Shown here piece by piece: positions 2,968 through 25,698 of a stretch of 32,000 nt of DNA. The stretch is from Candidatus Omnitrophota bacterium (GTDB taxonomy: Bacteria; Omnitrophota; Gorgyraeia; Zapsychrales; JANLHA01). Positions within the stretch are counted from its first letter, which is position 1, and every line of letters starts with the position of its first letter. The position numbers and the translations under genes are program-made. The notes under the pieces were generated by a model. It was not told the DNA's origin. It saw nothing but the letters and a program-made list of their open reading frames with translations, and made no database searches. The stretch is from positions 210,001 through 242,000 of the forward strand of contig OY759724.1 of the NCBI GenBank assembly GCA_963662715.1, given 5' to 3'.

Positions 2968-3004
2968 GGTCCTCACTTGCGGTCCTCACTTGGGTCCTCA
3001 CTTG
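2968..3004 (-). repeat. three tandem copies of a 12-nt unit spanning the phoU stop codon; probable terminator element
   Basis: GGTCCTCACTTG occurs at 2968-2979, 2981-2992 and 2993-3004 (minus strand CAAGTGAGGACC). Copy 3 contains the phoU TGA. GAGGACC of each copy can pair with minus-strand GGTCCCTC (2959-2966), which is followed by TAACTTTTT on the minus strand. Confidence 0.8.
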
Positions 3005-3693
3005 CTTTCACCGTCCCCGTTCTGCAGGCGTTCCGGATGATGCCTGACAACTTTGGCATTGACGAGGTAAATCGTATCCTGGGCAATGGCTTTGGCCAGG
3101 TCACAAATCCTCTCTAAATCACGGGCGACAAGAAGCAGGGGCACGGCCCGCGGGCTGCAGGCGCCGTCTTTAACCATGTAATCATAAACAAGTTCGTTCA
3201 TAATCGCCGTCCGAAGCTGATTGGCTTCAACATCTTTTAAAATAACTTCCTTGGCCAAAGCCTCGTCACGGTTGACAAAAGCGTCAATCGTTGACTTGAT
3301 CATCCATTTGGCCGTATCCCCCAAAGCCGGCAAATCAATGAGCGGTTTAACATGGCCCAGCTTCTGTTCGACGATTTCAAGCACTCTTTGGCTGATATTG
3401 ACCGTCAAATCAGCCATACGCTCCACCTGCATCGTAAAACTCATGGCTGTTGTGATAAATCGCAAGTCCCTGGCCATAGGCTGGAACAAGGCTAATAAAT
3501 CTATAATTTCCTCTTCGATCTGGTTTTCAAGGTCATCAACGACTTTGTCATCCCGGATAATCTCTTCGGCCAGTTCACTGTTCAGCTGTTTTAAAGCTTC
3601 CATAGACTTATGAACCGCGGTCTCAGTCAAAGCCGCTATCTTCATCAAATTTGTATTTAATTTCTGCAACTCATCATCAAAATGTCTTTCCAT
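2998..3693 (-). CDS. phoU: phosphate signalling complex protein PhoU
   Basis: 231-aa all-helical ORF with two PhoU repeats. N-terminus MERHFDDELQKL... is typical of PhoU. Lies directly downstream of pstB (65-nt gap). Confidence 0.9.
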   Translation of the reverse strand: MERHFDDELQKLNTNLMKIAALTETAVHKSMEALKQLNSELAEEIIRDDKVVDDLENQIEEEIIDLLALFQPMARDLRFITTAMSFTMQVERMADLTVNISQRVLEIVEQKLGHVKPLIDLPALGDTAKWMIKSTIDAFVNRDEALAKEVILKDVEANQLRTAIMNELVYDYMVKDGACSPRAVPLLLVARDLERICDLAKAIAQDTIYLVNAKVVRHHPERLQNGDGESK

Positions 3694-3758
3694 GAAGCAC
3701 TCCTTTTCATCCTGTTACGGGACAGATATCCTCAGGCCAAGCAACAGGTCAGGCCGCA

Positions 3759-4517
3759 TTATCCGAAACGGCCTGTGATATATTCTTCCGTAATCTTTTT
3801 TTGAGGTTTTGTAAAAATATCCGTCGTCTTTCCGGTTTCAATCAGTTCCCCCTGCATTAAAAAAGCCGTGATGTCTGATATCCGGGCCGCCTGCTGCATA
3901 TTATGCGTCACGATAATGATCGTATACGTGTTTTTTAATTGTACTATAAGTTCCTCTAATTTTGAAGTGGCGATAGGGTCCAAAGCCGAAGCCGGCTCAT
4001 CCATCAAAAGGATCTGAGGTTCAATCGCCAGAGCGCGAGCCACACATAAACGCTGCTGCTGGCCGCCGGACAAGGCAAAAGCGTTGTCATTAAGCCTGTC
4101 CTTGACTTCTTCCCAAAGGGCCGCGTTTTTCAGGCTGATTTCAACTTTTTCCGCGAGGTAATTCTTATCCTTGATCCCGTTAATCCTCAGCCCGTAGGCC
4201 ACATTATTGAAAATGGATTTCGGAAACGGGTTCGGCTTCTGGAACACCATGCCGACATTCTTGCGCAAATCCACGACATCATAATCTTTGGCATAAATGT
4301 TCCTGCCGTCAATAAGCATTTCCCCCTCTGTCCGGGCCCCTCTTATGAGATCATTCATCCGGTTCATACAGCGTAAAAATGTTGATTTACCGCATCCCGA
4401 GGGCCCGATAATGCTTGTGACCTGTTTCTCAGAAAAGCTGATCGTAATGCTTTTCAAGCATAAAGATGAACCGTAGAAAAAATTGAAATTTTTAACTCTT
4501 ATTTTGTTTGGATTCAT
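3759..4517 (-). CDS. pstB: phosphate ABC transporter ATP-binding protein PstB
   Basis: Walker [10 protein letters not shown], signature LSGGQQQRL, Walker [13 protein letters not shown]-loop VTHNM. Starts 3 nt after the pstA stop. Confidence 0.95.
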
Positions 4518-4520
4518 AAA

Positions 4521-5375
4521 TCATTCCCTCTGCTGCTTTCTGAGTTTATACCGGATAAGAATGGCAGAAAAATTCATCATAAAGACTAAAACGATTAAAA
4601 CCAAAGCCGTGCCGTAAGCAATAGGACGCACCTTTTCAATGGCATGATGCTGGGTTGACATAATATATAGATGGTACGGCAAGGCCATAAACTGATCTTT
4701 AATGGATCGGGGCAGAATCGGGAGAAAAAAAGCTGCCCCCGTGAATAAAATAGGCGCCGTCTCCCCCGCGGCCCGGGCTAATCCCAGAATGGTTCCGGTC
4801 AACATCCCGGGGATAGCGTAAGGCAACACATTTGTCCAGATAGATTCCCATTTGGTGGCTCCTAAAGCCAGAGCGCCTTCCCGATAAGACTTGGGAACAC
4901 TCTTCAGAGCTTCTTCCGAAGCTGTTATCGTCCAGGGAAGCGTCATCAGCCCCAGAGTCATCCCGGCAGAAAGGATTCCCGTTCCCAAATGCATCATCTC
5001 AACGAACAAAGCCACTCCGAATAAACCATAGACAATGGATGGAACGCCGGATAAATTTCTTATACTCATTCGGATCAGCCGCGTCAGCTTGCTGTCACCG
5101 GCATATTCATTCAAATAAATGGCGCATCCCATGCCCAAAGGAACGGCAAAAACCGCCGTAATTAAGGTCACCCAGAATGTTCCGACAATGGCCGGGAAAA
5201 TGCCCCCTTCCGTCATCCCCTTCCGGGGAGCCTGGGTGAGGAATTCCCAGCTGATTTTCCCGATCCCCTTGGTAAAAATATCGTAAAAGATGACGATGAG
5301 GATAAAAGCGACAAAGAACATGCAAAATCGCAAAAAGAAAAAACCTAATATCTGCGTGACATTTTTTTTCTGCAT
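4521..5375 (-). CDS. pstA: phosphate ABC transporter permease PstA
   Basis: 284-aa six-TM permease with GGIFPAIVGTFW and LSGVPSIVYGLFG motifs typical of PstA. Position is between pstC and pstB. Confidence 0.9.
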   Translation of the reverse strand: MQKKNVTQILGFFFLRFCMFFVAFILIVIFYDIFTKGIGKISWEFLTQAPRKGMTEGGIFPAIVGTFWVTLITAVFAVPLGMGCAIYLNEYAGDSKLTRLIRMSIRNLSGVPSIVYGLFGVALFVEMMHLGTGILSAGMTLGLMTLPWTITASEEALKSVPKSYREGALALGATKWESIWTNVLPYAIPGMLTGTILGLARAAGETAPILFTGAAFFLPILPRSIKDQFMALPYHLYIMSTQHHAIEKVRPIAYGTALVLIVLVFMMNFSAILIRYKLRKQQRE

Positions 5376-5452
5376 AATTTTTCTGCTTTTTAAATACAGA
5401 TCTTTATAAATCCTCTACAGGATTTCTTGGCTAAATATCAAAATCAGACTCT

Positions 5453-6334
5453 CTACATTCTCACTTTTTGTTCGTAACGGTGTAATACAATATCAGCGAT
5501 CAGGTTAATGATAAAGGTTATAATAAACAACACTAAACCGATCGCAAATAAAGCATGATAATGGGTTGTAAAATAAGGGACCTCCCCTAATTCAATAGCA
5601 ATACTGGCTGTGAGCGTGCGGACGGAATCTGTAAATTTATGAGGGAACGCCGGCGCATTCCCCGTGGCCATGAGCACCGTCATGGTTTCTCCGATAGCTC
5701 GGCCCATCCCTAACATGCAGGCCGCCAGGATCCCGGAACTCGCAGCGGGAATTTTGACCCGGATTAAAGTTTGCCAGGGATTCCCGCCAAGAGCCAGCGA
5801 AGCCTCGGTATAAGATTTGGGTACACTGCCGAGGGCATCTTCCGTCAGACTGACAATCGTCGGCAAGGCCATGACCGCCAGCAGGATCGAGCCGTTAATG
5901 GCATTCAAACCATTGCTTAACCCCGCCGCCCTGGCGATCAGGGGCCCGACCATAACGATCCCTAAAAATCCTATAACAACGGAAGGAATCCCGGCCAAAA
6001 TTTCCACAATGGGTTTGGCTGTTTCCCTGACTCTATGGCTGGCGACATCGGATAAATAAGCAGCTGTTCCAATACCTAAAGGGATGGCTATCAACAAAGC
6101 CCCCAAAGTGACCATGAACGTACTCATGACCATGGAGAGGATTCCGTATTTCTCTTTCACATAGGATGTCGGATTCCACTCAGCCGTGAACAGGAACTCG
6201 GTTAGCTTAATGTCCTTAAACGCAGGAAGGCTGTTCGTCAGCAAAAGGATAAATATCCCGGCCAGCGAGATAACAACAATCATCCCGTTAACAAAGAACA
6301 GGCCCGCAATAATCTTTTCTTTATTTATTTTCAT
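5453..6334 (-). CDS. pstC: phosphate ABC transporter permease PstC
   Basis: 293-aa six-TM permease with EILAGIPSVVIGFLG and GRAIGETM motifs. Lies immediately downstream of pstS. Confidence 0.9.
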   Translation of the reverse strand: MKINKEKIIAGLFFVNGMIVVISLAGIFILLLTNSLPAFKDIKLTEFLFTAEWNPTSYVKEKYGILSMVMSTFMVTLGALLIAIPLGIGTAAYLSDVASHRVRETAKPIVEILAGIPSVVIGFLGIVMVGPLIARAAGLSNGLNAINGSILLAVMALPTIVSLTEDALGSVPKSYTEASLALGGNPWQTLIRVKIPAASSGILAACMLGMGRAIGETMTVLMATGNAPAFPHKFTDSVRTLTASIAIELGEVPYFTTHYHALFAIGLVLFIITFIINLIADIVLHRYEQKVRM

Positions 6335-6376
6335 GGAACAGCTGCTTATTCGATCAACAAAACTTCACCTCAGTTA

Positions 6377-7249
6377 TTAAAACCCCAGCTTTTTATTAAG
6401 CTCGGTATATTCGTCCGGGATCTGGAAAAACCCTTCTTCCTCAACGATGTTCTGCCCTTCCGCGCTTAACTCAAAAGCGATGAAGGCTCTGACATCTCCG
6501 GAGGGGGAACCGTTAACATACTGGTTTAACGGACGGGCAATGGGATACTTGCCGCTTTTCACATCATACTTATCCAGCGGGCTCGCATAGTCAGCGCCTG
6601 CCCGGGCAGCCACCTCAGCTACGGTTAATCCGGAAGCATCCTTGACATAGCCGACACCGACATAACCGATACCGGAAGAATCATTCTTGACCGCTTCCAC
6701 GATCTGGGCATTGCCGTTCATACGGTTCATTTTGGCAGAATAATCGCCTTTCAGAACTTGTTCCTGAAAGAAGACAAAAGTCCCGGAATTAGACTGGCGT
6801 CCGTAAAGAGTGATGGACGCATCCTTGCCTCCGAGCTCAGACCAGTTCGTAACTTCACCTCGGAATATTTTCCCTAGTTCATCAATGGTAAATTTTTTAA
6901 CCGTATTATCCGGATGCACAATGACGCTTAAGCCGTCCATGGCAATAACGACACGTTTGGCCGTTACCCCCCTTGAGGCGGCCTGATCAACCTCTTTGGC
7001 TTTCATCCCTCGGGAAGCATCGGCAATATCACACTTACCGTTAATTAAAGCTGAAATACCCGTCCCGGATCCGCCGCCCGTTACGGCGATAAATTTCCCC
7101 GGGTTCTTTTCCATATAAACTTCGGCCAAACGCTGCACTAAATTGATCAGGGTATCCGACCCCTTAATCTGCAGCATGTCGGCATAGCCTGTTTGTGTCC
7201 ACGCACACAGCAGCGCGAAACACAGGATGATGTTCACGATAAATTTCAT
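6377..7249 (-). CDS. pstS: phosphate ABC transporter substrate-binding protein PstS
   Basis: Signal peptide MKFIVNIILCFALLCAWTQTGYA, then the KGSDTL and TGGGSGTG loops characteristic of PstS-type phosphate-binding proteins. Confidence 0.9.
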   Translation of the reverse strand: MKFIVNIILCFALLCAWTQTGYADMLQIKGSDTLINLVQRLAEVYMEKNPGKFIAVTGGGSGTGISALINGKCDIADASRGMKAKEVDQAASRGVTAKRVVIAMDGLSVIVHPDNTVKKFTIDELGKIFRGEVTNWSELGGKDASITLYGRQSNSGTFVFFQEQVLKGDYSAKMNRMNGNAQIVEAVKNDSSGIGYVGVGYVKDASGLTVAEVAARAGADYASPLDKYDVKSGKYPIARPLNQYVNGSPSGDVRAFIAFELSAEGQNIVEEEGFFQIPDEYTELNKKLGF

Positions 7250-7293
7250 TGATTCTTTTCCTTCCTTAACAAAGTTAAATTAGATTCCGCCTG

Positions 7294-8568
7294 TTAGAAC
7301 TTGACGACCAGATCAACCTGCAGCAGATGATCTAAGTCTTCGGACCTTTTAATGCGGTCATTTTGATAATAATCTATCCCAAAAATAATATTCTTTTTAA
7401 GGGCATAGTTTAAAATGACTTCATGCGAGATCACGTCTGTTTCTCCGGACCGGCGGTCGGAATCCGGGAACGTGTCTAAAAACGCGTCTCTCTGTAGATT
7501 GACAAACTGATATTTCAACTGCCAGGTCCCTTGTTTTTTCACTTTCTGATGACCGAGCTTCATACCGAAAGCCCATCCGTGCCGCTGTTCAATGTTCCTG
7601 TCAATATTCACGATATAATCCGCGAAAAAGGCAATCCGGTCATCAATTTGCAAAGGCAATCCTCCGAACGCTTCACGGACACCGAACTCCGCAGAATATC
7701 CAAAAGAGTCATAATCATACTCAAGCGCCGTCGTCGCTCCCGTGTTCGTCTCGGCACTGTAATCTAATGTCCTGTTCTGAACATTATCGAAAGCATAATA
7801 GGTTGCCGCCAGTTTGGCATCCATTTTTTCTTCTTTATATTCCAGCCCCGCCTGAGTGTAATATAAAAACGGAGCCCCTTTATCACTGTGGCTGTTTTCA
7901 TCCATAACCCACACACCCGTGTTGAAAATATAATCCGTATTGTCAATGAGGGCCATGCCGGAATTATTCAGGATTTTGCCCTGCGCGTGCAAAGACCCGC
8001 CGGTAGGATTAATATCGCCGTCCCAAAGCATATCGGTCGGAGCCCAAAGATATTTCTTTCTCTCAAATTTTCCCGCTACGAGTTCCACGTCTTTGGCATA
8101 AGGCGGAACATAGTTCACATAAGCATAATCCAGACGCAAGTCACCGGTCTCAAAGGTGTTGCTAAAAGTCTGATTTGTGGAACGCGGATCCCCACCGCCA
8201 CTGGCAATACCAGCGCCGACATCCACATCTCCGGCTTTTGTCATGAGGCCCAAACGGTAACGGACACGTCCGCGCTCTTTCGCATCCGTATCCGACGCAT
8301 CGCGCTCATACTGATAACGAACCCGCAGGTCACCTTTTAACTTCATCTTTTGCACCCAGGACGGCAGGGTGGGGTGCGTTCCCTGAGAAATTTCTTCAGC
8401 GACCTGCTGTTTTGTTTCATCTTTGATAATTTGGGCCTCAAAAGGCGTTATGATATCTTTCTGAACAAGTGTTTCCAGAAGCACATCAATCTCGCCGGCA
8501 AAGGAAGCCGAAAGAAGCACCCCTCCGAGTATTAAACCTGTTAATCCTAAAACGACTAACTTTTTCAT
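7294..8568 (-). CDS. putative outer-membrane porin (phosphate-porin-like by context)
   Basis: Signal peptide MKKLVVLGLTGLILGGVLLSASFA, an N-terminal helical segment, then an alternating beta-strand pattern and a C-terminal ...VDLVVKF typical of beta-barrels. Sits between the Pho-box promoter and pstS. The ORF track opens at GTG 8583; I prefer ATG 8568, which has AAAGGAG 5 nt upstream. Confidence 0.6.
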   Translation of the reverse strand: MKKLVVLGLTGLILGGVLLSASFAGEIDVLLETLVQKDIITPFEAQIIKDETKQQVAEEISQGTHPTLPSWVQKMKLKGDLRVRYQYERDASDTDAKERGRVRYRLGLMTKAGDVDVGAGIASGGGDPRSTNQTFSNTFETGDLRLDYAYVNYVPPYAKDVELVAGKFERKKYLWAPTDMLWDGDINPTGGSLHAQGKILNNSGMALIDNTDYIFNTGVWVMDENSHSDKGAPFLYYTQAGLEYKEEKMDAKLAATYYAFDNVQNRTLDYSAETNTGATTALEYDYDSFGYSAEFGVREAFGGLPLQIDDRIAFFADYIVNIDRNIEQRHGWAFGMKLGHQKVKKQGTWQLKYQFVNLQRDAFLDTFPDSDRRSGETDVISHEVILNYALKKNIIFGIDYYQNDRIKRSEDLDHLLQVDLVVKF

Positions 8569-8587
8569 TTTTTCTCCTTTCACCCAT

Positions 8588-8788
8588 TTAAGAAAAAGAT
8601 CCCAACGATTTCCTGATGGTGCGAATTCTGAATTCAGACATTTTAAGCGAATCTTTTAAATAACTGTCTTCAAAATTGTTGTTATGTTCCAAAGAATTCA
8701 ACAAATTCTGCAGACAGATAATTTCTCTTTGTATACTGCGAACGGTGTAGTCAAGATGCAGGCATGAAATGTTTTGACTTGAAACCAT
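8588..8788 (-). CDS. hypothetical 66-aa protein, first cistron of the porin-pst operon
   Basis: ATG at 8788 is preceded by GGAGGTGA with a 3-nt spacer (minus strand AAAGGAGGTGAATCATG; 5 nt from the GGAGG core). Stop lies 4 nt before the porin ORF. Predicted helical, with no family recognised. Confidence 0.45.
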   Translation of the reverse strand: MVSSQNISCLHLDYTVRSIQREIICLQNLLNSLEHNNNFEDSYLKDSLKMSEFRIRTIRKSLGSFS

Positions 8789-8820
8789 GATTCACCTCCT
8801 TTCTGTTCTTTAGAATTAAT

Positions 8821-8872
8821 CTTATATGCCGCTTGTGAGGAACAAATGAAGGGAATGTGAAAATCATGTAAA
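8821..8872 (-). promoter_or_regulatory. Pho-box array plus -10 element (PhoB-dependent promoter of small ORF-porin-pstSCAB-phoU)
   Basis: Minus strand reads TTTACA(8872-8867)-N5-TTCACA(8861-8856)-N5-TTCATT(8850-8845)-N5-CTCACA(8839-8834), an exact 11-bp phasing. Then 7 nt, then TATAAG (8826-8821). The array replaces a -35 element, as at PhoB/PhoP-activated promoters. Confidence 0.6.
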
Positions 8873-9031: not shown

Positions 9032-10801
9032 TCAAGTCTTGGGAAGTGAAAAACTAAAAGTCGACCCGGCCCCCAAAGAACTCTCGGCAGAGACTTGGCC
9101 TCCCTGAGCCTGAACAATATGCTTGACAATAGAGAGCCCCAAACCTGTTCCTCCAAGCTTGCGGGAACGGGCCTTGTCTACCCGGTAGAAGCGCTCAAAG
9201 ACCCGAGGCAGCTCATTAGGACTTATTCCTATACCGGAATCTTTAATAAAAAACACGCAACACTCTTCATTTTCTTTAGCGGAAATTTCCACCCAGCCGT
9301 CCTCCCTGTTGTATTTTATGGCATTCTCTATCAAATTAAAAAATACTTGGGCAAAATACGTCCTGTCTGTCTTCATCTTTGGGAAAGAAGGGAGGATATT
9401 ATTGGTGATTCGAATATTCCGCTGTTCCGCAAGCGGGCCCAGGCTCTCAATTGTCTTTTCAACGATGGCGTAAACATCACAGATTTCCTGATGAAATGTC
9501 AATTTCCCCGACTCTATCCTTGCCAAATCCAATAAATCCGAAATGAGTTGCGCCAGCCTTCCGGCATTGGAATAAATGATTTTTATAAAATCCAAAGCGT
9601 TCTCCCGGTCATCGATGGCTCCGTCTATCAATGTTTCGGCATAACCTTTGATGCTAGCGATCGGGGTGCGCAGCTCATGTGAAACATTGGCGACAAATTC
9701 CTGCCGGATTTTTTCCAGCTTTCTCAAATCCGTAATATCATGAAAAACAAGCACCGCCCCTTCAATTTGCTTATCCCGTACAACCGGGGTAGCGTGAACT
9801 AAAAGCCTCTTCTCTTCTTCGAGGAAAACGGAAATTTCCTGTGTTACAAAACCACTGTGCAGGTTCAGGATCTGGTCGGTGATATGCTGAATCTCAATAT
9901 TCCGAATGACCTCCAGAGGCTTTTTCCCCCGCGGATCCCCCTCCAGGGAAAAAACATCCCTTAAAGGATCGTTAATTAATAAAATACATCCTTTAACATC
10001 AATAACGATCACGCCTTCGAACATACTCAAAAGCACGGCTTCCAGCCGCGACTTGTGCGCCACAACTTCCTCCATACGGGAGGAAATCTGCTCTGACATA
10101 TAGTTGATAAGCCGGGCTAAATCTCCAATCTCATCCGACGAATCGATAAGGACCCGCCTTGATAAATCACCGAAAGCAATGGAACGGGCGACATCAGAGA
10201 CTTCCTTCAAGGGTCTGGAGATAAAGACAGAGGCGGCATATCCTATCAGGAATGCAAAAATAAGGGCCAAAAACAGTCCCAGCAGTAAAAATTTTCTCAA
10301 AGTGTGGGAAATAAGCTGCATTTCAGAAAGAGGCAAAGCTAAACGAAGCACCCCCTTCTCTCCCTTGAAAGAGAACGGATATCCGATATAAAGCATTTGT
10401 TTCTGCAGGGTCGTACTGAAGCGCAGACTCTCTCCAATCCCTCCTCTGAGGGCAGCCTGAACCTCAGGCCGGAAAAGATGATTTTCAATATGCGCAAGAT
10501 CGGCGGCCGCGACATCGGAATCCCCCCAGAGGGTTCCGTCAGGAGCAATGATCGTAACTCTCAGTCCTAAGTCCTGGCCGATGGTGTCCGCCAACTGATC
10601 ATAACCTTCCCTGGAAACAGCCGGCAGACGGCTTTCTAAATATGTGAGACTCAAAGCCGCCTTGCTGATCAAATCGGCCTTAAGACGCTGGTAGGCATAC
10701 TGGGTCAATTTCGTATTAAGAAAAAAATACAAACCGACCAGAACAATGATGACAATCAGCGTGAAAATTATGGTGATTTTATGATGTCGATGGGCTTTCA
10801 T
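9032..10801 (-). CDS. phoR: PhoR-like phosphate-regulon sensor histidine kinase
   Basis: TM helix, about 135 aa of extracytoplasmic region, second TM, HAMP, PAS, H-box SHELRTP, and ATPase boxes NAIKYN, DSGIGI, GGTGLGLSIV. Overlaps the phoB stop by 4 nt (ATGA). Confidence 0.85.
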   Translation of the reverse strand: MKAHRHHKITIIFTLIVIIVLVGLYFFLNTKLTQYAYQRLKADLISKAALSLTYLESRLPAVSREGYDQLADTIGQDLGLRVTIIAPDGTLWGDSDVAAADLAHIENHLFRPEVQAALRGGIGESLRFSTTLQKQMLYIGYPFSFKGEKGVLRLALPLSEMQLISHTLRKFLLLGLFLALIFAFLIGYAASVFISRPLKEVSDVARSIAFGDLSRRVLIDSSDEIGDLARLINYMSEQISSRMEEVVAHKSRLEAVLLSMFEGVIVIDVKGCILLINDPLRDVFSLEGDPRGKKPLEVIRNIEIQHITDQILNLHSGFVTQEISVFLEEEKRLLVHATPVVRDKQIEGAVLVFHDITDLRKLEKIRQEFVANVSHELRTPIASIKGYAETLIDGAIDDRENALDFIKIIYSNAGRLAQLISDLLDLARIESGKLTFHQEICDVYAIVEKTIESLGPLAEQRNIRITNNILPSFPKMKTDRTYFAQVFFNLIENAIKYNREDGWVEISAKENEECCVFFIKDSGIGISPNELPRVFERFYRVDKARSRKLGGTGLGLSIVKHIVQAQGGQVSAESSLGAGSTFSFSLPKT

Positions 10802-11490
10802 GTATCATCTCTCAAACAATACCCGACACCGCGGATAGTTTCAATGAGATGTCCTGCAGATCCGAGTTTTTGACGGAGGCATTTGATATGAGTATCTACA
10901 GTACGGGTTGTGACTTCTGTATTCATCTCCCACACTTCACTTAACAGTTTTTCCCGCGACTGCACCCGCCCTCTCGTCCGCATCAGGTAAACGAGCAGAT
11001 TAAATTCCATAGACGTAAGGACGACGATATTTCCTTTAACAAGAACCCTGTGCCTCGGGATATCGATCACCATGTCGTCCAGTTCCAGGACGGCTTTCTT
11101 TTCCGAATGATCAACGGGATTTCTTTTCAAAACATTTTTGATCCTCAATATCAATTCCCGCACGCTAAAAGGCTTCACGACGTAATCATCCGCCCCCAAC
11201 TCCAACCCCACAACCCGGTCCACTTCTTCTCCCCTCGCCGTCAAAATAATAATAGGGATGGTTGACAGAAGAGCATCGGCCTTGATCGTCCGGCAGGTGT
11301 CAAATCCGTCCATTTTCGGAAGCATGATGTCGAGGATGATCAGATCGATTTCCTCATTATTCAAAGTCTCCAAGGCTTCCTCGCCGGTGATGACGACTGA
11401 GCACTTATACCCGGCCTTCTGCAGATTGTATTTTAAAAGCTTGGAAATATGAAGATCATCTTCAACGACTAAAACGTGTTCGATAGGCAT
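10798..11490 (-). CDS. phoB: PhoB-like OmpR-family response regulator
   Basis: Receiver domain (VVEDD, LIILDIMLPKMDGF, VKPF) plus winged helix (LTSMEFNLLVYLM, VDTHIKCLRQKL, IETIRGVGY). The ORF track opens at 11574, but ATG 11490 has AAAGGAG 8 nt upstream and gives the canonical N-terminus MPIEHVLVVEDD. Confidence 0.9.
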   Translation of the reverse strand: MPIEHVLVVEDDLHISKLLKYNLQKAGYKCSVVITGEEALETLNNEEIDLIILDIMLPKMDGFDTCRTIKADALLSTIPIIILTARGEEVDRVVGLELGADDYVVKPFSVRELILRIKNVLKRNPVDHSEKKAVLELDDMVIDIPRHRVLVKGNIVVLTSMEFNLLVYLMRTRGRVQSREKLLSEVWEMNTEVTTRTVDTHIKCLRQKLGSAGHLIETIRGVGYCLRDDT

Positions 11491-11680
11491 ATATCGCGCT
11501 CCTTTGGAATCTGAAATTGCTATAATCTTAACACAGATTTCAAAAGGGATGCAATAGCTGGGAATGAAGTTCACAAAAATATCACAAACGGAGCTCTTGC
11601 GAATATTTTGTTATCCACAGGGCAAAAACTTCTCACAAATCTATTAAAAAAATATTTCACGAAAATATTTATATATTTAT

Positions 11681-11805: not shown

Positions 11806-12009
11806 TTATCCCAGAAGAATCTTTTCCGCCTCAAGCCAGTCGGCCAAATCACTTCCGTGAGTCCCTCCGCGCTGCTCAAACAATTCATAAGCTTTCTTTT
11901 GAATATCCAGGGCATCAACTGACGCCAACTTTTTTCTGGATCGAATTTGAGCCGTGTCTTTTGATGCTTTTGTTTTTTTTGTTGATTTTCTTTTTACCGC
12001 AGTAGCCAT
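11806..12009 (-). CDS. DUF2934-like small basic protein
   Basis: 67-aa ORF with AAAGGAG 8 nt upstream of the ATG. Lys-rich N-terminus, then AYELFEQRGGTHGSDLADWLEAE, which matches the conserved AYxLWExRGxxHGxDxxDWxxAE core of DUF2934. Confidence 0.7.
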   Translation of the reverse strand: MATAVKRKSTKKTKASKDTAQIRSRKKLASVDALDIQKKAYELFEQRGGTHGSDLADWLEAEKILLG

Positions 12010-17227: not shown

Positions 17228-18595
17228 TTACTTTCCCGCAGAAGAGGCATAAAGGAAAAGGGCTTTTCTCTGTGAAGAATCTTTGTATCGTGATACGGCT
17301 TGCGGGGAAGGAAGTTGAATGCTTTTGATATTCTTGCTTTTCAGATATTCTCTGGCGGCCTTATTTAATATCAGTTTCTTGTCTTGATACCCTATGATAA
17401 GCAACTGCGGGTTTTTCTTGCAGATCTTCCGGAGCAACGTCAAATTCATTCTATGGGATAACACTTTCTCATCCGAAGAAAGGCTGTTCTTAACTTTTTT
17501 GACCTTGCCGTCCGTCCGGATATAGACACTGCCCGGATAGGACTGCTGATGAATGATTATGCCGTTATCTGCCGCTAACTGAATATCCATGGCCTTGTCA
17601 CGGACGTCCGGGAGGGGACCTTTCTCATCCTGCTGCAATAAGGCCACGGCTCCCAAAATAACGGCAAAATCCCCTAACTGTGAAGGGACGATCCGGCAAT
17701 GGTCAACGCCTTTAAAAAAGGGATCTGCCGCGGAAACGCGCTTGACCTTCGGAAGCATATATTTGCCGCAGGCCTCTATCAACCCTCCGCCGAAGACGAT
17801 CATCTCGGGATTAAAAATATGGCGTAACGAAATACACGCTTTCCCCAAAACGACACAGACCTCATCAAGAATACGAAGGACATCCGGGTCCTTCCGCTTA
17901 ATAGCCTCAGCAATAACCGAACTTTTAACGAGGCCTTTTTTTTCTTTGACTAAACTCTTAATACCAGACTTCTTCTTTTTTCTAACAACGCTCCAGATCT
18001 CCCTTTCAATGGCCCGCCGGCTGGCTAAAGCTTCCAAAGAACCGTAAATGCCGGCGTTTTCCTTTCTGCTGTTATAGTCTAGAATCATATGCCCCAGTTC
18101 CCCTGCCGCCCCCTGTGCGCCGGAAACGAGTCTGCCGTCTATGATAATGGCTCCGCCGACACCGGTTCCGGGGAAAAGCCCCAGCACATGCCGCACATCC
18201 TTAGCAACCCCTAACCATTTTTCTCCCAGCAGGCCTAGGTTAACATCATTCTCCAAAATAACCTTAACACCAAAGTCCTTCTTCAGCTTTCTGCCCAGAG
18301 GGAAGCGGCTTAAATTCGTATTCGGAGTAACAAGAACTTCCGTATGATCCGGTTTGACGATTCCGGGTATCCCGACCCCTATACCGACAAAGCGGGCCTC
18401 CGGGACAGGCGACGCCTTCATCAATTCCCGGATCAAGGTCTTTATGGCCTGATATATTTGGGGGGACGTTGCATTTTGCGGAGTCTGGATCTTTTTCCGG
18501 CAGAGCAATTGCCCTTCCTGGGTGACCAGTCCCGCGGATATTTTCGTGCCGCCGATATCCACGCCTATATATACTGACTCTTTCATCACTGACAT
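17228..18595 (-). CDS. ROK-family sugar kinase fused to a C-terminal Mth938-like (DUF498) domain
   Basis: N-terminal GVDIGGTK, ENDVNLGLLGE and GTGVGGAIIIDGRLVSGAQGAAGELGHM are ROK/ASKHA motifs. Residues from about 335 to 455 (YPGSVYIRTDGKV...SHRMNLTLL...PQLLIIGYQDKKL...IQLPSPQAVSRYKD...ALFLYASS) follow the Mth938/DUF498 pattern. Start could be ATG 18586 instead of 18595. Confidence 0.85.
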   Translation of the reverse strand: MSVMKESVYIGVDIGGTKISAGLVTQEGQLLCRKKIQTPQNATSPQIYQAIKTLIRELMKASPVPEARFVGIGVGIPGIVKPDHTEVLVTPNTNLSRFPLGRKLKKDFGVKVILENDVNLGLLGEKWLGVAKDVRHVLGLFPGTGVGGAIIIDGRLVSGAQGAAGELGHMILDYNSRKENAGIYGSLEALASRRAIEREIWSVVRKKKKSGIKSLVKEKKGLVKSSVIAEAIKRKDPDVLRILDEVCVVLGKACISLRHIFNPEMIVFGGGLIEACGKYMLPKVKRVSAADPFFKGVDHCRIVPSQLGDFAVILGAVALLQQDEKGPLPDVRDKAMDIQLAADNGIIIHQQSYPGSVYIRTDGKVKKVKNSLSSDEKVLSHRMNLTLLRKICKKNPQLLIIGYQDKKLILNKAAREYLKSKNIKSIQLPSPQAVSRYKDSSQRKALFLYASSAGK

Positions 18596-18599
18596 CCTA

Positions 18600-19943
18600 T
18601 TAGACTGTTTCTTCTTCGGTTATCTTTAATTGTAATTCTTTTTGGAAAACTAATCTAAACAAATCGGATTTTTTTTCCACCCGTGCCTTTTCCCACTCGG
18701 AGAAATCATCTGCCCTTATCTCAAGAACAACCTGTCTTTTATCCACCCTTGCCCGCAAAGCTTTGACCGAATTCACGTGACGGCTGTCAAACCCGTCGGC
18801 CAATCTGAGAAGGGAAGCCAGTTTCTTCAGTTCCTCCTTCTTCCCGTCAGACAAATCCGAATAATATTTATGGGTGTTTTTCGGCAGAGCCCTTCTATGG
18901 TACCGTGCAACCAGCGCCACAATGACTTTCTCATCATAACTCAAAGGTAAATTGTAGGATTTCAGAATCATATCCCTGGACGTTTTATGATGACGGATCC
19001 GCCCTTTGATCCAGCCGATATCATGCAACAGGGAAGCCGACTGCAACAACAGGCGATGTCTGGGGGACAGCTGATGGAGGTCCGCCAGTCCGTCAAACAG
19101 CTGCAGCGTCAGTTGGGTCACCTGATGAGAATGCTCCTTTTCATATTCACACGATCTGGCCAGTTTTAAAACCTCCTGGATAACATCTTTTTCACTGGCC
19201 TGCCTCCAGACCTGGCGATTGATCTCATCTAGACTTTGACCTGTCTCAATGGAACGGATAATATCTTTAGGGAACTTTTTCTGCGTCATGGCCCGGATAA
19301 CGCTCTTAAGAGGATAGGAAATACGTCTGTTGCTGACACTGATCTTACGCCCGTCAATATCCATGACAACATATGAAGCGCGCGGGTCTCCGTCAAAAGG
19401 ACGTCCGACACTTCCTGGATTAACGAACCAGACATTCTTGATCTTTTTCAAAAAAAATTTGTGGGTGTGCCCGCATAAAATCAGGTCGGCATGACTTGTC
19501 TGCGCGAGCTGTTCAAATCTCTTCACTGGAGTATTGTCCTGCAAAGGTTCATCCATAGACTCCGGACTCCCGTGGGTCAATAAAATGTTCAACCCTTCTC
19601 TGGTGCATCGGACAGAACACGGCAAGTTCTGCAGATAATTCCGGGCTGGTTTTGACAGCTGTCGATACGTCCACTTGAATGAAAAATATTTTGACGGGGT
19701 CTTGCTGTTTTTCCATTTTCGCTGTTTTTGGGGGAATCTCAGGACATTCAGGTCGTAATTTCCGGCAATGCTGACCTGAGCTTGTTTCCGAATGACCTGA
19801 ATAACCTTCTGGGGCGCAGGTCCGTAGCCGACATAGTCGCCCAAAAACCATATCTCTTGAACGGACTGCGAACGGATATCACGCAGGACAGCCATTAAGG
19901 CTGGTAAATTGGCATGGGCATCAGCTAAAACGGCGACCTTCAT
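18600..19943 (-). CDS. metallophosphoesterase (YfcE/Metallophos_2-like) fused to a Ppx/GppA-type C-terminal HD module
   Basis: N-terminal half has DAHAN, GDYVGYG, GNYD, LTHGSP, CGHTH and NPGSVGRP (calcineurin-like phosphoesterase metal ligands). The C-terminal half is collinear with the C-terminus of the ppx product in this window (LHDIGW..HHKTS..VARYHRRALPKNTH..LASLLRLADGFD versus LHEIGM..HHKHS..VARYHRGAVPQKTH..LSSIIRLANALD). Confidence 0.8.
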   Translation of the reverse strand: MKVAVLADAHANLPALMAVLRDIRSQSVQEIWFLGDYVGYGPAPQKVIQVIRKQAQVSIAGNYDLNVLRFPQKQRKWKNSKTPSKYFSFKWTYRQLSKPARNYLQNLPCSVRCTREGLNILLTHGSPESMDEPLQDNTPVKRFEQLAQTSHADLILCGHTHKFFLKKIKNVWFVNPGSVGRPFDGDPRASYVVMDIDGRKISVSNRRISYPLKSVIRAMTQKKFPKDIIRSIETGQSLDEINRQVWRQASEKDVIQEVLKLARSCEYEKEHSHQVTQLTLQLFDGLADLHQLSPRHRLLLQSASLLHDIGWIKGRIRHHKTSRDMILKSYNLPLSYDEKVIVALVARYHRRALPKNTHKYYSDLSDGKKEELKKLASLLRLADGFDSRHVNSVKALRARVDKRQVVLEIRADDFSEWEKARVEKKSDLFRLVFQKELQLKITEEETV

Positions 19944-20848
19944 AATCCCCCGAACCAGGCATAGACATATTCACACATATTCTCAAAAGTGCGTTGCTCT
20001 TTCGCCTGTTGCCATCTTTCAAAAAATTGAATATATACGGTTTCTTTTTCCTTTTGAAGATACCCTTTGAGGAGTTTCCACAAATTTCGGGCAGCCTTTC
20101 CTTTCCCCGGGCTCCTTTGCTCCAAAATCATTATCTCTCGCAACCAAAGATCATAGTCATGAAAAACCCCCAATTGTCTGTGAAAAGTCAGCACGCTGTC
20201 GCTAAAGACATCCAACCCCTCATCGTACAGCAAAGATAATCCTTCCAGCGTATATCTCAGGTGCTTGGCGGCAATACGCATGTTGTGCAGGTCGTTGACC
20301 TTTTCCGGATATTGGGCGATGCCGTCAAATTCAACTAAACCAACGGCTCTTTTTTTGATTTTCTTATAAGCAAGCTTATAAATATCCGTTTCGCCCAAGT
20401 CCCTCACTCCGTCCCTGCTGTAATTCTCTATGTCCCGCCAAACCCGTTTGAGCTTTTTCTTGGCCAGCGCGTCGCCCATCCGGCGCTGCAACCGCTTTTT
20501 TTTATCATTTAATACAAACAAGGCCTCTTCCAGTATTTCCAGTTGTTCTTTCCTGTCGGTTCTTGTCCGGTACCCGTCCAAAAAAATAACAAACACATCC
20601 AAATCCCGGCCGGCAGACGTCGCTCCGGCGAGTTTACGCAGCTGATCATTCCAGGCCTCCCGCCGTTTGCGGGGGAAGACGTCCTTCCATATCCACAGGG
20701 CATTTCGCAGCCGTCTGATATTAACGCGCAGTTGATGCAGCGATTCGACATCCCCTGCCTCAACCCCCGGGATGGCCTTCTCAATCCTTTTGACATGCTT
20801 CAAAAGGCATTGCTCCGTTAATTGTCGTGTTAATGTTTTATCCTTCAT
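19940..20848 (-). CDS. CHAD domain-containing protein
   Basis: 302-aa helical ORF with the two CHAD signature helices LHQLRVNIRRLRNAL and LHNMRIAAKHLRYTLE. Overlaps ppk1 by 11 nt and the downstream gene by 4 nt. Confidence 0.75.
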   Translation of the reverse strand: MKDKTLTRQLTEQCLLKHVKRIEKAIPGVEAGDVESLHQLRVNIRRLRNALWIWKDVFPRKRREAWNDQLRKLAGATSAGRDLDVFVIFLDGYRTRTDRKEQLEILEEALFVLNDKKKRLQRRMGDALAKKKLKRVWRDIENYSRDGVRDLGETDIYKLAYKKIKKRAVGLVEFDGIAQYPEKVNDLHNMRIAAKHLRYTLEGLSLLYDEGLDVFSDSVLTFHRQLGVFHDYDLWLREIMILEQRSPGKGKAARNLWKLLKGYLQKEKETVYIQFFERWQQAKEQRTFENMCEYVYAWFGGL

Positions 20849-22871
20849 AATGTTTGATCATTTCATGCTGAATATCTTTATCATCTTCTTTGCCTTTGAG
20901 TTTTTCGTATTTCCCGTCAGGACAAAGGCGCCAGGACTTCTTGTGGTCTTTCCAATAGAGCTCCAGCAGGGACTTTAAATGCTCTTTGATATCTTCCTTG
21001 TATATTTCAAACAACAGCTCAACGCGCCCGTCAAAGTTTCTTCTCATCCAATCAGCCGATGATAAGAAAATCCGGGCATTATCATTGTTGTTGAACAAAA
21101 ACATCCTCGTGTGCTCCAGAAAACGGCCGACGGTACTTTTAACCTCAATATTATCACTGAGCCCCTGAACTTCCGGGATTAAACAACAGATGCCTCTCAC
21201 GATGAGCTTCACCTTAACGCCTGCCTTTGACGCGGAATACAGTTTTTCAATAATACGGGGATCTTCCAGCGAATTCATTTTGGCCAGGATCAGGCCGTTT
21301 TTATTTTTCTTCTGAAATTTCATCTCCCGTTCAATGAGAGAAAACAAATATTCGCGCAGGTCATTGGGGGCAGAAATGATCCGCTCCCATCCTGTCGGCA
21401 TGGAATAGCCGGTAATAACATTAAAAATTTCCGACACATCCCTGGCAAAGTCATCATTGGCGGTAAAATAGCCGATATCCGTATAAATTCTCGCAGTTTT
21501 CTCGTTATAATTTCCCGTAGAAAGATGCACATATCTTTGAATCTGTGCGTTCTCTTCCCGGACGATCAACGCCATCTTGGAATGAACCTTATATCCGGGG
21601 ATACCGTAAATGACATGGCACCCGGCTTCTTCCAGCTCCCGGCTCCATTTGATATTGCTCTCTTCGTCAAATCTGGCCTTAATTTCCACAAGAATCGTCA
21701 CCTGTTTTCGGTTCGCAGCCGCCTCTTTAAGGGCATCAATAATCGCCGAATCATTATTCGTGCGATACAGCGTCATTTTGATCGCCAGGACATGCGGATC
21801 TTTCGCGGCTGTGCGGATAAGGTCCACTGTGGGGTAAAAAGACTGAAACGGGAGATGCGTTATAAAATCGCCCTCTTTCATTCTTTCAAAAATATTCTCA
21901 TACTCAATCTTTCCGGGTAAATATCCCGGGAAACAAAACTCCGGCCGGTCAACCTGCCTGATCAGATCAAACAGCAGCGTCAAGTCCAGATCGTTATCAA
22001 GGAACAACACATCTTCCTTGGGAAACTCCAGGCCTTCCGAAAGCATCGCCAACACACTGGCATTGGCGACCTGTTCGGCCTGAACGCTGACAACATGAGC
22101 CACCTTTCTCTTTTTGACCTCTCCTTCAATGGTCTTAAGAAGATTGGGAGAGAACTCTTCGTCCACATCCAGCTCACTGTCCCGCATGACCCGGAACAGG
22201 AAAAAATTCTTAATCTTATATCCTTTAAAAAAAGACCCGAGATGCTGCCGGATAATGTTATCCACCAGAAAAAACACGTAATCCTTCTTGCCCGACGGCA
22301 ACCGGATAACCCGCGGGACATTCTGCGGAACCGGAACGATCGCCAGATGTTCGCTCCCTTTCTGTTTGAGGCCGACCGCAAAAGCCATGGTCTTTGAAGG
22401 CAGAATCGGGAAAGGGTGTCCGGGGTCTACGGCTAAAGGGGTGATAATAGGGTAAAGGATCGTTTGGAAATATTCCTCAATAAACCTTTTTTGTTCTTTG
22501 TTCAAATCCTTATACTGCTTGACATATATCCGGTTCTTTTCCAGTTCCGGGGAAAACACCTTTTGATATATTTCATAAGATTTTTTAATAAGGTTCGTGG
22601 AGACCCTCTTTGTCTCATGCAGGACATCAACGGAATAATGCCCGAAAGCATCAACCTGGTTTACCTGAGCGCTTATCAAATTCTGCAGACCGGCGATACG
22701 CACCATAAAAAATTCGTCAAAATTATTGGCAAAAATCGCCAGAAATTTTATGCGCTCCAGCAGAGGATGCGACGGGTCCAGACATTCCTCCAGAACCCGG
22801 GCGTTGAACTGCAGCCAGCTTAAATCCCGGGGAATAAACCGGCTGTCCTCACGTATTTCTAAATGGGTCAT
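20838..22871 (-). CDS. ppk1: polyphosphate kinase 1
   Basis: 677-aa ORF with N-terminal FIPRDLSWLQFNARVLEE...FLAIFANNFDEFFMVRIA, and PLD-like C-terminal repeats YKVHSKMALIV and GRFLEHTRMFLF, all characteristic of PPK1. Confidence 0.95.
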   Translation of the reverse strand: MTHLEIREDSRFIPRDLSWLQFNARVLEECLDPSHPLLERIKFLAIFANNFDEFFMVRIAGLQNLISAQVNQVDAFGHYSVDVLHETKRVSTNLIKKSYEIYQKVFSPELEKNRIYVKQYKDLNKEQKRFIEEYFQTILYPIITPLAVDPGHPFPILPSKTMAFAVGLKQKGSEHLAIVPVPQNVPRVIRLPSGKKDYVFFLVDNIIRQHLGSFFKGYKIKNFFLFRVMRDSELDVDEEFSPNLLKTIEGEVKKRKVAHVVSVQAEQVANASVLAMLSEGLEFPKEDVLFLDNDLDLTLLFDLIRQVDRPEFCFPGYLPGKIEYENIFERMKEGDFITHLPFQSFYPTVDLIRTAAKDPHVLAIKMTLYRTNNDSAIIDALKEAAANRKQVTILVEIKARFDEESNIKWSRELEEAGCHVIYGIPGYKVHSKMALIVREENAQIQRYVHLSTGNYNEKTARIYTDIGYFTANDDFARDVSEIFNVITGYSMPTGWERIISAPNDLREYLFSLIEREMKFQKKNKNGLILAKMNSLEDPRIIEKLYSASKAGVKVKLIVRGICCLIPEVQGLSDNIEVKSTVGRFLEHTRMFLFNNNDNARIFLSSADWMRRNFDGRVELLFEIYKEDIKEHLKSLLELYWKDHKKSWRLCPDGKYEKLKGKEDDKDIQHEMIKHYEG

Positions 22872-24415: not shown

Positions 24416-24780
24416 TTGTCCTCAATTGTTCAATTTGATTGTTCCGGCCCCGGAGCACAGCATCATGGATGTTTTAAAACGCCGAAATATTTATTATGCG
24501 GTTCCGGGAGGGAAAAATCAAACAAATTCTCACAGCCCGGACAACGCGACCAATAACACCCCGTCCAAACGGTCATCTGCACGGCCGGACGGGTGACGCC
24601 ACAGCGAAAACATCGGGACAACAATACGGCCGGGTATCGAAGACGGGTATAATGGGATTTTTATAATAGTAACACAAAATGATCAATATAATAAACTCAT
24701 TATTACTCAACCGCCCGCTTTTATGAAGATCAGCAAAATTAAAGCATCGGGCAGGGGGATATCACGCGATTATCTCTGAA

Positions 24781-24832
24781 TAATATAGGTATGACATGAA
24801 GGGAAAGTGAAGCCCAAGAAAAAAGTGTGTGA
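24781..24832 (-). promoter_or_regulatory. second Pho-box array plus -10 element, upstream of the ppx-ppk1 operon
   Basis: Minus strand reads TTCACA(24832-24827)-N5-TTTTCT(24821-24816)-N5-TTCACT(24810-24805)-N5-TTCATG(24799-24794), then 7 nt, then TATATT (24786-24781). The 11-bp phasing and 7-nt distance to the -10 match the pst promoter. The core TTCACTTTCCCTTCATG matches TTCACATTCCCTTCATT there at 15 of 17 positions. Confidence 0.5.
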
Positions 24833-24963
24833 ATTCTTGTTAAAACACCCTGTCAACGAAGATAAGGCCGGGAGAGATCGCAATTACAAGGCTCGGAAGG
24901 ATTAAACGCGGAATTTCAAGGCCCCGGGATTGAACAGGATAAATTCGGGGTGGCAGAAGGTTC

Positions 24964-25698
24964 CTACTGGCGTTTCCTGATACAATTCCTTCCGGCCCGT
25001 TTGGCATCATACAAGGCTTCATCGGTAAGTTTAAGCAGTTTATTGACAGTCTCAACGTTGCCCTCATTAGAAGAGATGCCGAAACTGGCCGTGACTTTGA
25101 TCTTTTTCTCTTTATAGTAAAACTGCGTCTTCTCGATAATAGTTTTTAATTTATTGGCGAGGATTTCCGCGTTATTCATATTCGTATGCATACACACAAC
25201 GAGAAACTCTTCTCCGCCGAAACGTCCGAAATAGTCCGTTCTCCGGATATTATTTAAGATTTTCCAGGAAAAGTTCTGCAGGACATAATCACCGGCGTCA
25301 TGCCCGTATTTATCATTAATCTTTTTAAAATGGTCCAGATCAATCAAGATCACGGAAAAGGGGAATTTATACCTCTGCCCCGACAAAAAGGCGCTCTCGA
25401 GGAGCTCTATGATATATCTTCGATTAAATATTTCCGTCAAAAAATCCGTGCGGCTCGCTTTCTCCAGGAGGTCTTTTGTTATGTTTAATTCATCAATTAA
25501 ATTCAGCAAGTAAATCGTGATCACCGGCGTTAAGACAATCGGGGCCATAATGGAAATATAGATAGCCCCTCTAAATCCGATTGTGTCGAGTCTGAAAATA
25601 ATAAAGATAAACGTCGTGAGCAACACGGAAATCAGGACGCAAATGATCGTAATAAGAATGGATTTGAGCAAAGTAACTTTTGTGCGCTTGAAAAGCAT
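24964..25698 (-). CDS. membrane-anchored GGDEF diguanylate cyclase
   Basis: Two to three N-terminal TM helices, then a GGDEF domain with active-site GGEEF and an RxxD I-site (RRTD) five residues upstream. Confidence 0.9.
   Translation of the reverse strand: MLFKRTKVTLLKSILITIICVLISVLLTTFIFIIFRLDTIGFRGAIYISIMAPIVLTPVITIYLLNLIDELNITKDLLEKASRTDFLTEIFNRRYIIELLESAFLSGQRYKFPFSVILIDLDHFKKINDKYGHDAGDYVLQNFSWKILNNIRRTDYFGRFGGEEFLVVCMHTNMNNAEILANKLKTIIEKTQFYYKEKKIKVTASFGISSNEGNVETVNKLLKLTDEALYDAKRAGRNCIRKRQ

Follow-up and report, generated by a model that had tools for sequence, protein, structure and literature searches.

Results

Organization of the polyphosphate operon and of the region upstream from it

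The window (the whole stretch of DNA analyzed, 32,000 nucleotides from a Candidatus Omnitrophota bacterium) contains a tightly packed cluster of five genes, with gaps or overlaps of no more than 11 nt, located about 16 kb from the pst/phoBR region. The cluster and its leader are as follows:

24416..24779, minus strand, leader of about 360 nt, from the predicted Pho promoter to the ppx start codon
22874..24415, minus strand, ppx, Ppx/GppA exopolyphosphatase with an HD-type domain III (the database copy begins at 24409; 511 aa)
20838..22871, minus strand, ppk1, polyphosphate kinase 1 (four Pfam PPK domains; TIGR03705 815 bits, cut-off 466)
19940..20848, minus strand, CHAD-domain protein (11-nt overlap with ppk1)
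18600..19943, minus strand, metallophosphoesterase fused to an HD / Ppx-domain-III region (4-nt overlap with the CHAD gene)
17228..18595, minus strand, sugar kinase of the ROK family carrying DUF498 at its C terminus; the operon ends with this gene

Two of the products are unusual fusions: that of a YfcE-type metallophosphoesterase with the HD / Ppx-domain-III region (447 aa) and that of the ROK and DUF498 domains (455 aa). A polyphosphate-glucokinase role for the ROK protein found no support in its NF045942 score (58 bits, against a cut-off of 250).

A gap of 548 bp separates the GGDEF gene (stop at 24964) from ppx. It contains an array of hexamers, listed here from the most distal to the most proximal element:

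24839..24844, minus strand, optional fifth hexamer TTTAAC, weaker, in phase, 11 bp upstream of unit 1
24828..24833, minus strand, putative Pho-box unit 1, TTCACA (about -60 to -55, with the -10 at 24785-24780)
24817..24822, minus strand, putative Pho-box unit 2, TTTTCT, weak
24806..24811, minus strand, putative Pho-box unit 3, TTCACT
24795..24800, minus strand, putative Pho-box unit 4, TTCATG, at about -27 to -22, where a -35 element would otherwise stand
24780..24787, minus strand, ppx -10 region TATATTAT, directly preceding the leader

The four units, beginning at 24833, 24822, 24811 and 24800 on the minus strand, display exact 11-bp phasing. The hexamers and their spacing had already been described in a reading of the letters made without database searches (hereafter referred to as the sequence-only reading), and both stand; the start positions given there (24832, 24821, 24810 and 24799) were each 1 nt too low. 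One weak unit per array, such as TTTTCT, is also usual in related genomes, and the four-unit score beginning at TTTAAC (24844) was 16-21 bits (scoring matrix described below). There are two options for the -10 element: TATATT (24787-24782), with a gap of 7 nt (tcatacc), or TATTAT (24785-24780), with a gap of 9 nt. The former had been reported at this distance from the last hexamer and is indeed present; the related promoters favour the 9-nt gap. The sequence-only reading also named ppx and ppk1 as the target genes. Both are included, but the promoter heads a five-gene operon and its reach is thus wider than these two genes.

The pst operon, its promoter and the phoBR-like pair

The phosphate-uptake genes and a regulatory gene pair lying immediately upstream of them were identified with Pfam and NCBIfam, together with the promoter elements and hexamers listed below:

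11570..11586, plus strand (opposite to phoB), hexamer pair TTCACA-AAAAT-ATCACA upstream of phoB
10798-11478, minus strand, phoB-like response regulator (ATG at 11478)
9032-10801, minus strand, phoR/pnpS-like histidine kinase (the pair, 9032..11478, is immediately upstream of pst)
8834..8872, minus strand, pst Pho-box array with 11-bp phasing: TTTACA (8872), TTCACA (8861), TTCATT (8850) and CTCACA (8839)
8819..8826, minus strand, pst -10 region TATAAGAT
2998..8788, minus strand, pst operon: small ORF (8588-8788), Porin_5 porin (7294-8568), pstS (6377-7249), pstC, pstA, pstB and phoU (2998-3693)

The best NCBIfam match of the response regulator was TIGR02154 PhoB (234 bits, below the 296-bit cut-off), and the CreB, RpaB and MtrA models were also matched. 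Its best match among solved structures was RegX3, the mycobacterial phosphate regulator (1.9e-52). The histidine kinase passed the PnpS cut-off (412 vs 400).

The pst -10 may be TATAAG (8826-8821), 7 nt (agcggca) from the last hexamer, or TAAGAT (8824-8819), 9 nt from it. The hexamer CACAAG stands 7 nt past TTCATT in this promoter, and the fourth unit is CTCACA at 8839. With CTCACA as the fourth unit, the claim that the pst and ppx promoters have the same layout, including the 7-nt gap, is correct. The two promoters also share a core, as previously stated: on recomputation, the 17-mers TTCACTTTCCCTTCATG and TTCACATTCCCTTCATT were again identical at 15/17 positions. This core corresponds to units 3-4 of the ppx array and to units 2-3 of the pst array; counted from the -10, the positions of the two similar 17-mers thus differ by one 11-bp unit. 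The match between the two arrays suggests that the genes for phosphate uptake and for polyphosphate metabolism are probably switched on together.

The pst Pho promoter is followed first by a small ORF (62-72 aa) with a strong ribosome-binding site, which precedes the porin gene. Copies are present in the window (8588-8788, minus strand) and in four of the junctions described below (L082, 6780-6980; L084, 3783-3980; L085, 3761-3979; L086, 3394-3582), with 20-80% identity to the window copy and a common C-terminal motif, ...IR.IRK.... No Pfam family was found for this ORF, which may be a hitherto uncharacterised Pho-regulon gene. A second small gene, encoding a lysine-rich protein, lies upstream of phoB (11808-12009, minus strand). 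Its counterpart in L082 is annotated DUF2934, and in that genome a DAGK_cat lipid-kinase gene, absent from the window, is located between the DUF2934 gene and phoB.

Definition of a putative Pho box in other Omnitrophota

The phoBR-pst junctions of five other Omnitrophota genomes (L082-L086) were collected via porin homologues. Four phased TTCACA-like hexamers were found in each of L082, L083, L084, L085 and L086, past phoR and ahead of the first pst-operon gene, so that the same junction, from phoBR to the porin-pstSCAB-phoU operon, bears an array in six Omnitrophota genomes, including the window. The -10 of these five promoters, 9 nt past the array, was TATTAT, TATAAC, TATAAT, TATACT or TAAAAT. 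In all 11 promoters compared, the last hexamer was followed, after 7-9 nt (most commonly 9 nt), by a TATAAT-like hexamer, and in none of them, ppx and pst included, was a TTGACA-like -35 found.

A matrix was built from the 20 hexamers of these five pst promoters, with none from the window, and was summed over four units at 11-bp spacing. The counts (T15 T17 C17 A19 C14 A10, each of 20) correspond to the consensus TTCACA. The phoB and pstS sites of the relatives were left out of matrix training. In a leave-one-out analysis, the top matches lay upstream of the pst operon, phoB, pstS or the porin, all of them Pho genes. Scores of 24.3 (L085) and 17.0 bits (L086) were obtained upstream of phoB, and of 21.8 and 21.4 (L086), 15.9 (L085) and 13.0 bits (L083) upstream of pstS or the porin. 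This family of arrays is the first comparative definition of a predicted Pho box for Omnitrophota.

Direct four-unit arrays are present upstream of phoB in L085 and L086, whereas the window has only the pair of hexamers in the opposite orientation, an arrangement that speaks somewhat against the PhoB reading. This pair is kept in L082 (about 4090-4110), where the closest relative's copy reads GTTCACCAAAATATCACA, and it lies upstream of a promoter-like region, TTGCAT-18-TGtTAAGAT. Extra GTCACA-rich arrays resembling Pho boxes were observed between the porin and pstS in L083 (5249), L085 (5250) and L086 (5241), and another such array lies just upstream of the porin in L086 (3761), which implies internal Pho promoters within the pst clusters of these relatives. 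The porin-pstS gap of the window is only 44 bp long and has no array.

These comparisons bear on the identity of the protein bound and on its effect. The hexamers could be the site of a different OmpR-family regulator, given that a design of 11-bp direct repeats is common to the sites of this family and that the response regulator scores below the PhoB cut-off and matches CreB, RpaB and MtrA too; nevertheless, six genomes have the motif directly between phoBR and pst, and it is also found upstream of phoB and pstS. Alternatively, PhoB could repress the ppx promoter, because induction of polyphosphate synthesis during starvation looks paradoxical, but the -10 geometry equals that of pst, the archetypal activated target, there is no separate -35 to occlude, and Pho-dependent induction of ppk is on record for other bacteria (PMC4415409). 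We consider this pair of explanations decidedly unlikely, and activation by PhoB remains the preferred reading of the array.

Rarity of the array

Of the 64,000 positions scored with the foreign-trained matrix, the pst array of the window came first (24.7 bits) and the ppx array second (21.8 bits); the site that followed in the ranking was unrelated and had 12.3 bits. The maximum scores of 100 Markov-simulated 32-kb windows had a mean of 13.0 ± 2.6 (sd), with a top value of 20.5. The ppx array thus exceeds all 100 null maxima, as does the pst array, in agreement with the earlier statement that their recurrence is unlikely to be due to chance. As to the background frequency raised in the sequence-only reading, none of the 100 simulated windows reached 21.8 bits, and equally good arrays were thus not frequent in simulated sequence; for the source genome itself, the scan covered the 32 kb of the window. 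The simpler pattern TTCAY-N6-TTCAY has two sites in the window, those of the ppx and pst arrays only, with 0.43 expected.

In the 81 related ppx loci, a score of at least 20 bits was attained at only 5 of 1.5 million positions. Four of these five are promoter-like; one is the ppx promoter of L081, and at least three others are promoters of L055 with TATACT at a 9-nt gap.

Conservation of the array upstream of ppx

A protein search recovered a 100% identical copy of Ppx (P0001) on a 3.36-Mb contig. Nearly all relatives of Ppx belonged to MAGs of Candidatus Omnitrophota, and the best match among species representatives was only 58% identical. The closest relative, with a Ppx 73% identical, is represented by the 592-kb contig ERZ21869602:ctg94587l (L081, L082), which shows synteny with the window. 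In L081, ppx is preceded by an array composed of TTTACA, TTTACG, TTCACC and TTCACG at 11-bp phasing, with TATAAT 8 nt past the last hexamer. The array begins 294 nt upstream of ppx, directly past a terminator hairpin, and has a score of 25.2 bits, the best of the 1.5 million positions. In the pairwise alignment of L081 with the window, the columns of the array match, whereas the leader can hardly be aligned at all and another gene lies upstream. An array aligned amid diverged surroundings constitutes a phylogenetic footprint. The Pho-box reading of the ppx array is therefore supported by the presence of the array at pst, phoB and pstS in the relatives and at ppx in L081.

The exact pattern TTCAY-N6-TTCAY was not found upstream of ppx in 80 Omnitrophota loci. 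The matrix scan of four phased units recovered three loci missed by the exact-pattern search: L081; L055, where a 20.1-bit array, followed by TATACT after a gap of 9 nt, separates phoR from a ppx paralogue; and L015, where the array is weaker (17.2 bits) and lies 101 nt ahead of ppx. The same scan yielded no array at most of the approximately 70 other Omnitrophota ppx loci. Most Omnitrophota ppx promoters look constitutive, with an extended -10 (TGnTATACT), and the link with Pho therefore appears to be lineage-specific and patchy in the phylum.

This patchiness is one of the arguments for considering the ppx array to be a functionless chance resemblance, together with the A+T-rich, T-rich nature of the intergenic DNA and the poor quality of one of the four units. 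Set against these points, the score of the array is higher than any of the null window maxima, its orientation, phasing and distance to the -10 are all correct, an equivalent array is found in L081 within otherwise diverged sequence, and only five of the 1.5 million related-locus positions, four of them promoter-like, reach 20 bits. A chance origin thus seems extremely improbable.

The gene neighbourhood was also compared. The cluster ppx-ppk1(-CHAD-phosphoesterase/HD)-ROK is conserved across Omnitrophota. In L001 (4089-8572) and L075 (549-8568), ppx-ppk1 directly follows pstB-phoU on the same strand, and in L042 (3931-6530), ppx-ppk1 is divergent from pstS. These arrangements indicate that the link between polyphosphate and phosphate uptake recurs, by different means. 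In L055, the region downstream of ppk1 (5650-8028) contains two divergent Pho-like promoters, at 6063 (minus strand) and 6083 (plus strand), with scores of 20-21 bits and TATACT at a 9-nt gap in both. The sequence flanked by these promoters is nearly devoid of ORFs of 60 aa or more, with a 62-aa ORF (5762-5950) alone on the minus side.

The ppx leader and a possible second promoter

The ppx ATG lies about 365 nt from the promoter of the array. A sigma-70-like match, TTGATT-17-CATAAT (24521-24493), is present in the leader, about 80 nt upstream of the ATG. Given this distance and the nearer sigma-70-like match, the Pho promoter may be one of two. The leader gave no Rfam match at the gathering threshold or at E ≤ 1, its folding was no better than that of shuffled sequences (z = +0.83), and it displayed no conservation with L081, no convincing or conserved ORF and no terminator-like site. 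A riboswitch, an attenuator and a small gene were all considered for the leader and rejected on the basis of these Rfam, folding, conservation and ORF results. The leader contains a GC-rich hairpin (cacccgtcc...ggacggggtg; 24555-24600, minus strand) with no T-run or Rfam match, and the ppx leader of L081 carries a GC-rich segment of different sequence at a comparable position.

The array might then bind PhoB but act as an auxiliary distal promoter, or drive a separate short leader transcript, with basal expression of ppx-ppk1 from 24521-24493. The length of the leader, the sigma-70-like match close to the ATG and the location of the ppx promoter 50-70 nt from the ATG in most relatives are all consistent with such an arrangement. 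However, L081 retains the array with a leader of about 240 nt and no intervening gene, and the leader of the window has no conserved ORF, Rfam family, terminator-like site or unusual structure, such that we consider an auxiliary role unlikely. It would in any case be compatible with the main reading, that of a Pho promoter driving the operon, because the operon would remain part of the Pho regulon even with two promoters.

Discussion

The array upstream of ppx is probably a tandem Pho box forming a PhoB-activated promoter with no -35, driving the ppx-ppk1-CHAD-phosphoesterase/HD-ROK operon. We infer PhoB as the binding protein, activation as the effect and the position of the transcription start from sequence comparison. 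In the mechanism that we propose, scarcity of phosphate would lead the PhoR-type kinase (9032-10801) to phosphorylate the PhoB-type regulator (10798-11478), two dimers of which would bind the four units head-to-tail, from about -60 to -22. The promoter-proximal unit would substitute for the -35 and recruit RNA polymerase to the -10 at 24787-24780. Transcription would begin near 24773 and proceed through the leader of about 360 nt into the five-gene operon (24415 down to 17228). The same regulator would drive the pst operon via the array of like geometry at 8872-8819.

The Omnitrophota arrays can be compared with known Pho boxes. The distance from the E. coli Pho box to the -10 was reportedly found to be 10 bp by Makino et al. 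in 1988. For a 7-nt unit defined as two bases followed by TTCAC, the 9-nt gap after the hexamer likewise corresponds to 10 bp to the -10. For B. subtilis, Liu and Hulett are said to have described, in 1998, a PhoP core binding region of four TT(A/T/C)ACA repeats, at roughly -60 to -20. This PhoP hexamer, TT(A/T/C)ACA, is also matched by the Omnitrophota core. The TTCACA core resembles the Gram-positive/actinobacterial type, consistent with RegX3 being the nearest solved relative of the regulator.

PHO boxes consist of 11-nt direct-repeat units with a species-specific consensus (CTGTCAT for E. coli, GTTCACC for S. coelicolor; PMC4415409). The Omnitrophota arrays share with the E. coli PhoB promoters their 11-bp direct repeats, to which regulators of the OmpR/PhoB family bind head-to-tail in E. 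coli (PMC4415409), the abutment of the array on the -10 with no -35, and the tandem boxes at pst. They differ in belonging to an uncultured Omnitrophota lineage and in having a TTCACA-like core, rather than CTGTCAT: the 20 hexamers of the relatives yielded TTCACA and did not match the E. coli core. The sequence TTCAC(A/C) matches the GTTCACC of the Streptomyces PhoP units (PMC4415409, PMC2275107). Unlike the Gram-positive PHO boxes, those predicted for Omnitrophota belong to another phylum and have a spacer of exactly 5 nt.

PpK is induced under the Pho regulon in most bacteria (PMC4415409, citing Ghorbel et al. 2006, Streptomyces lividans). As in S. lividans, the gene for polyphosphate kinase is preceded by a PHO box, a predicted one in this case, and would therefore be induced along with phosphate uptake. 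The Omnitrophota unit differs from that of S. lividans in being a five-gene operon with ppx in first position and additional CHAD, phosphoesterase/HD fusion and ROK genes, and in that the link is provided by a four-unit array in some genomes and by fusion to pst-phoU in others. In the collection of papers searched, none links Omnitrophota, polyphosphate and Pho regulation. As Pho control of ppk/ppx is established in other bacteria, the gain is incremental: the wiring is already known elsewhere, and what is new is its Omnitrophota instance and the comparative definition of the Pho box, a useful, unsurprising addition.

It is possible, if somewhat doubtful, that the five-gene polyphosphate module came under Pho control recently and on separate occasions in different lineages of Omnitrophota, either by the de novo gain of a four-unit box (the window lineage, L081, L015 and L055) or by fusion to pst-phoU (L001 and L075). 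If true, Omnitrophota would be a natural case of regulon rewiring and would provide the first defined Pho box (TTCACA × 4, 11-bp period, with the -10 nine nt downstream) in a phylum without pure cultures, a box that would be usable to predict the whole phosphate-starvation regulon of the phylum.

The arrays provide a testable sequence-level definition of the phosphate-starvation operator for Omnitrophota, a widespread group known almost only from metagenomes, and the matrix is applicable to the mapping of Pho regulons across Omnitrophota MAGs. For the window lineage, they predict that the genes for polyphosphate turnover would answer the same signal as high-affinity phosphate uptake.
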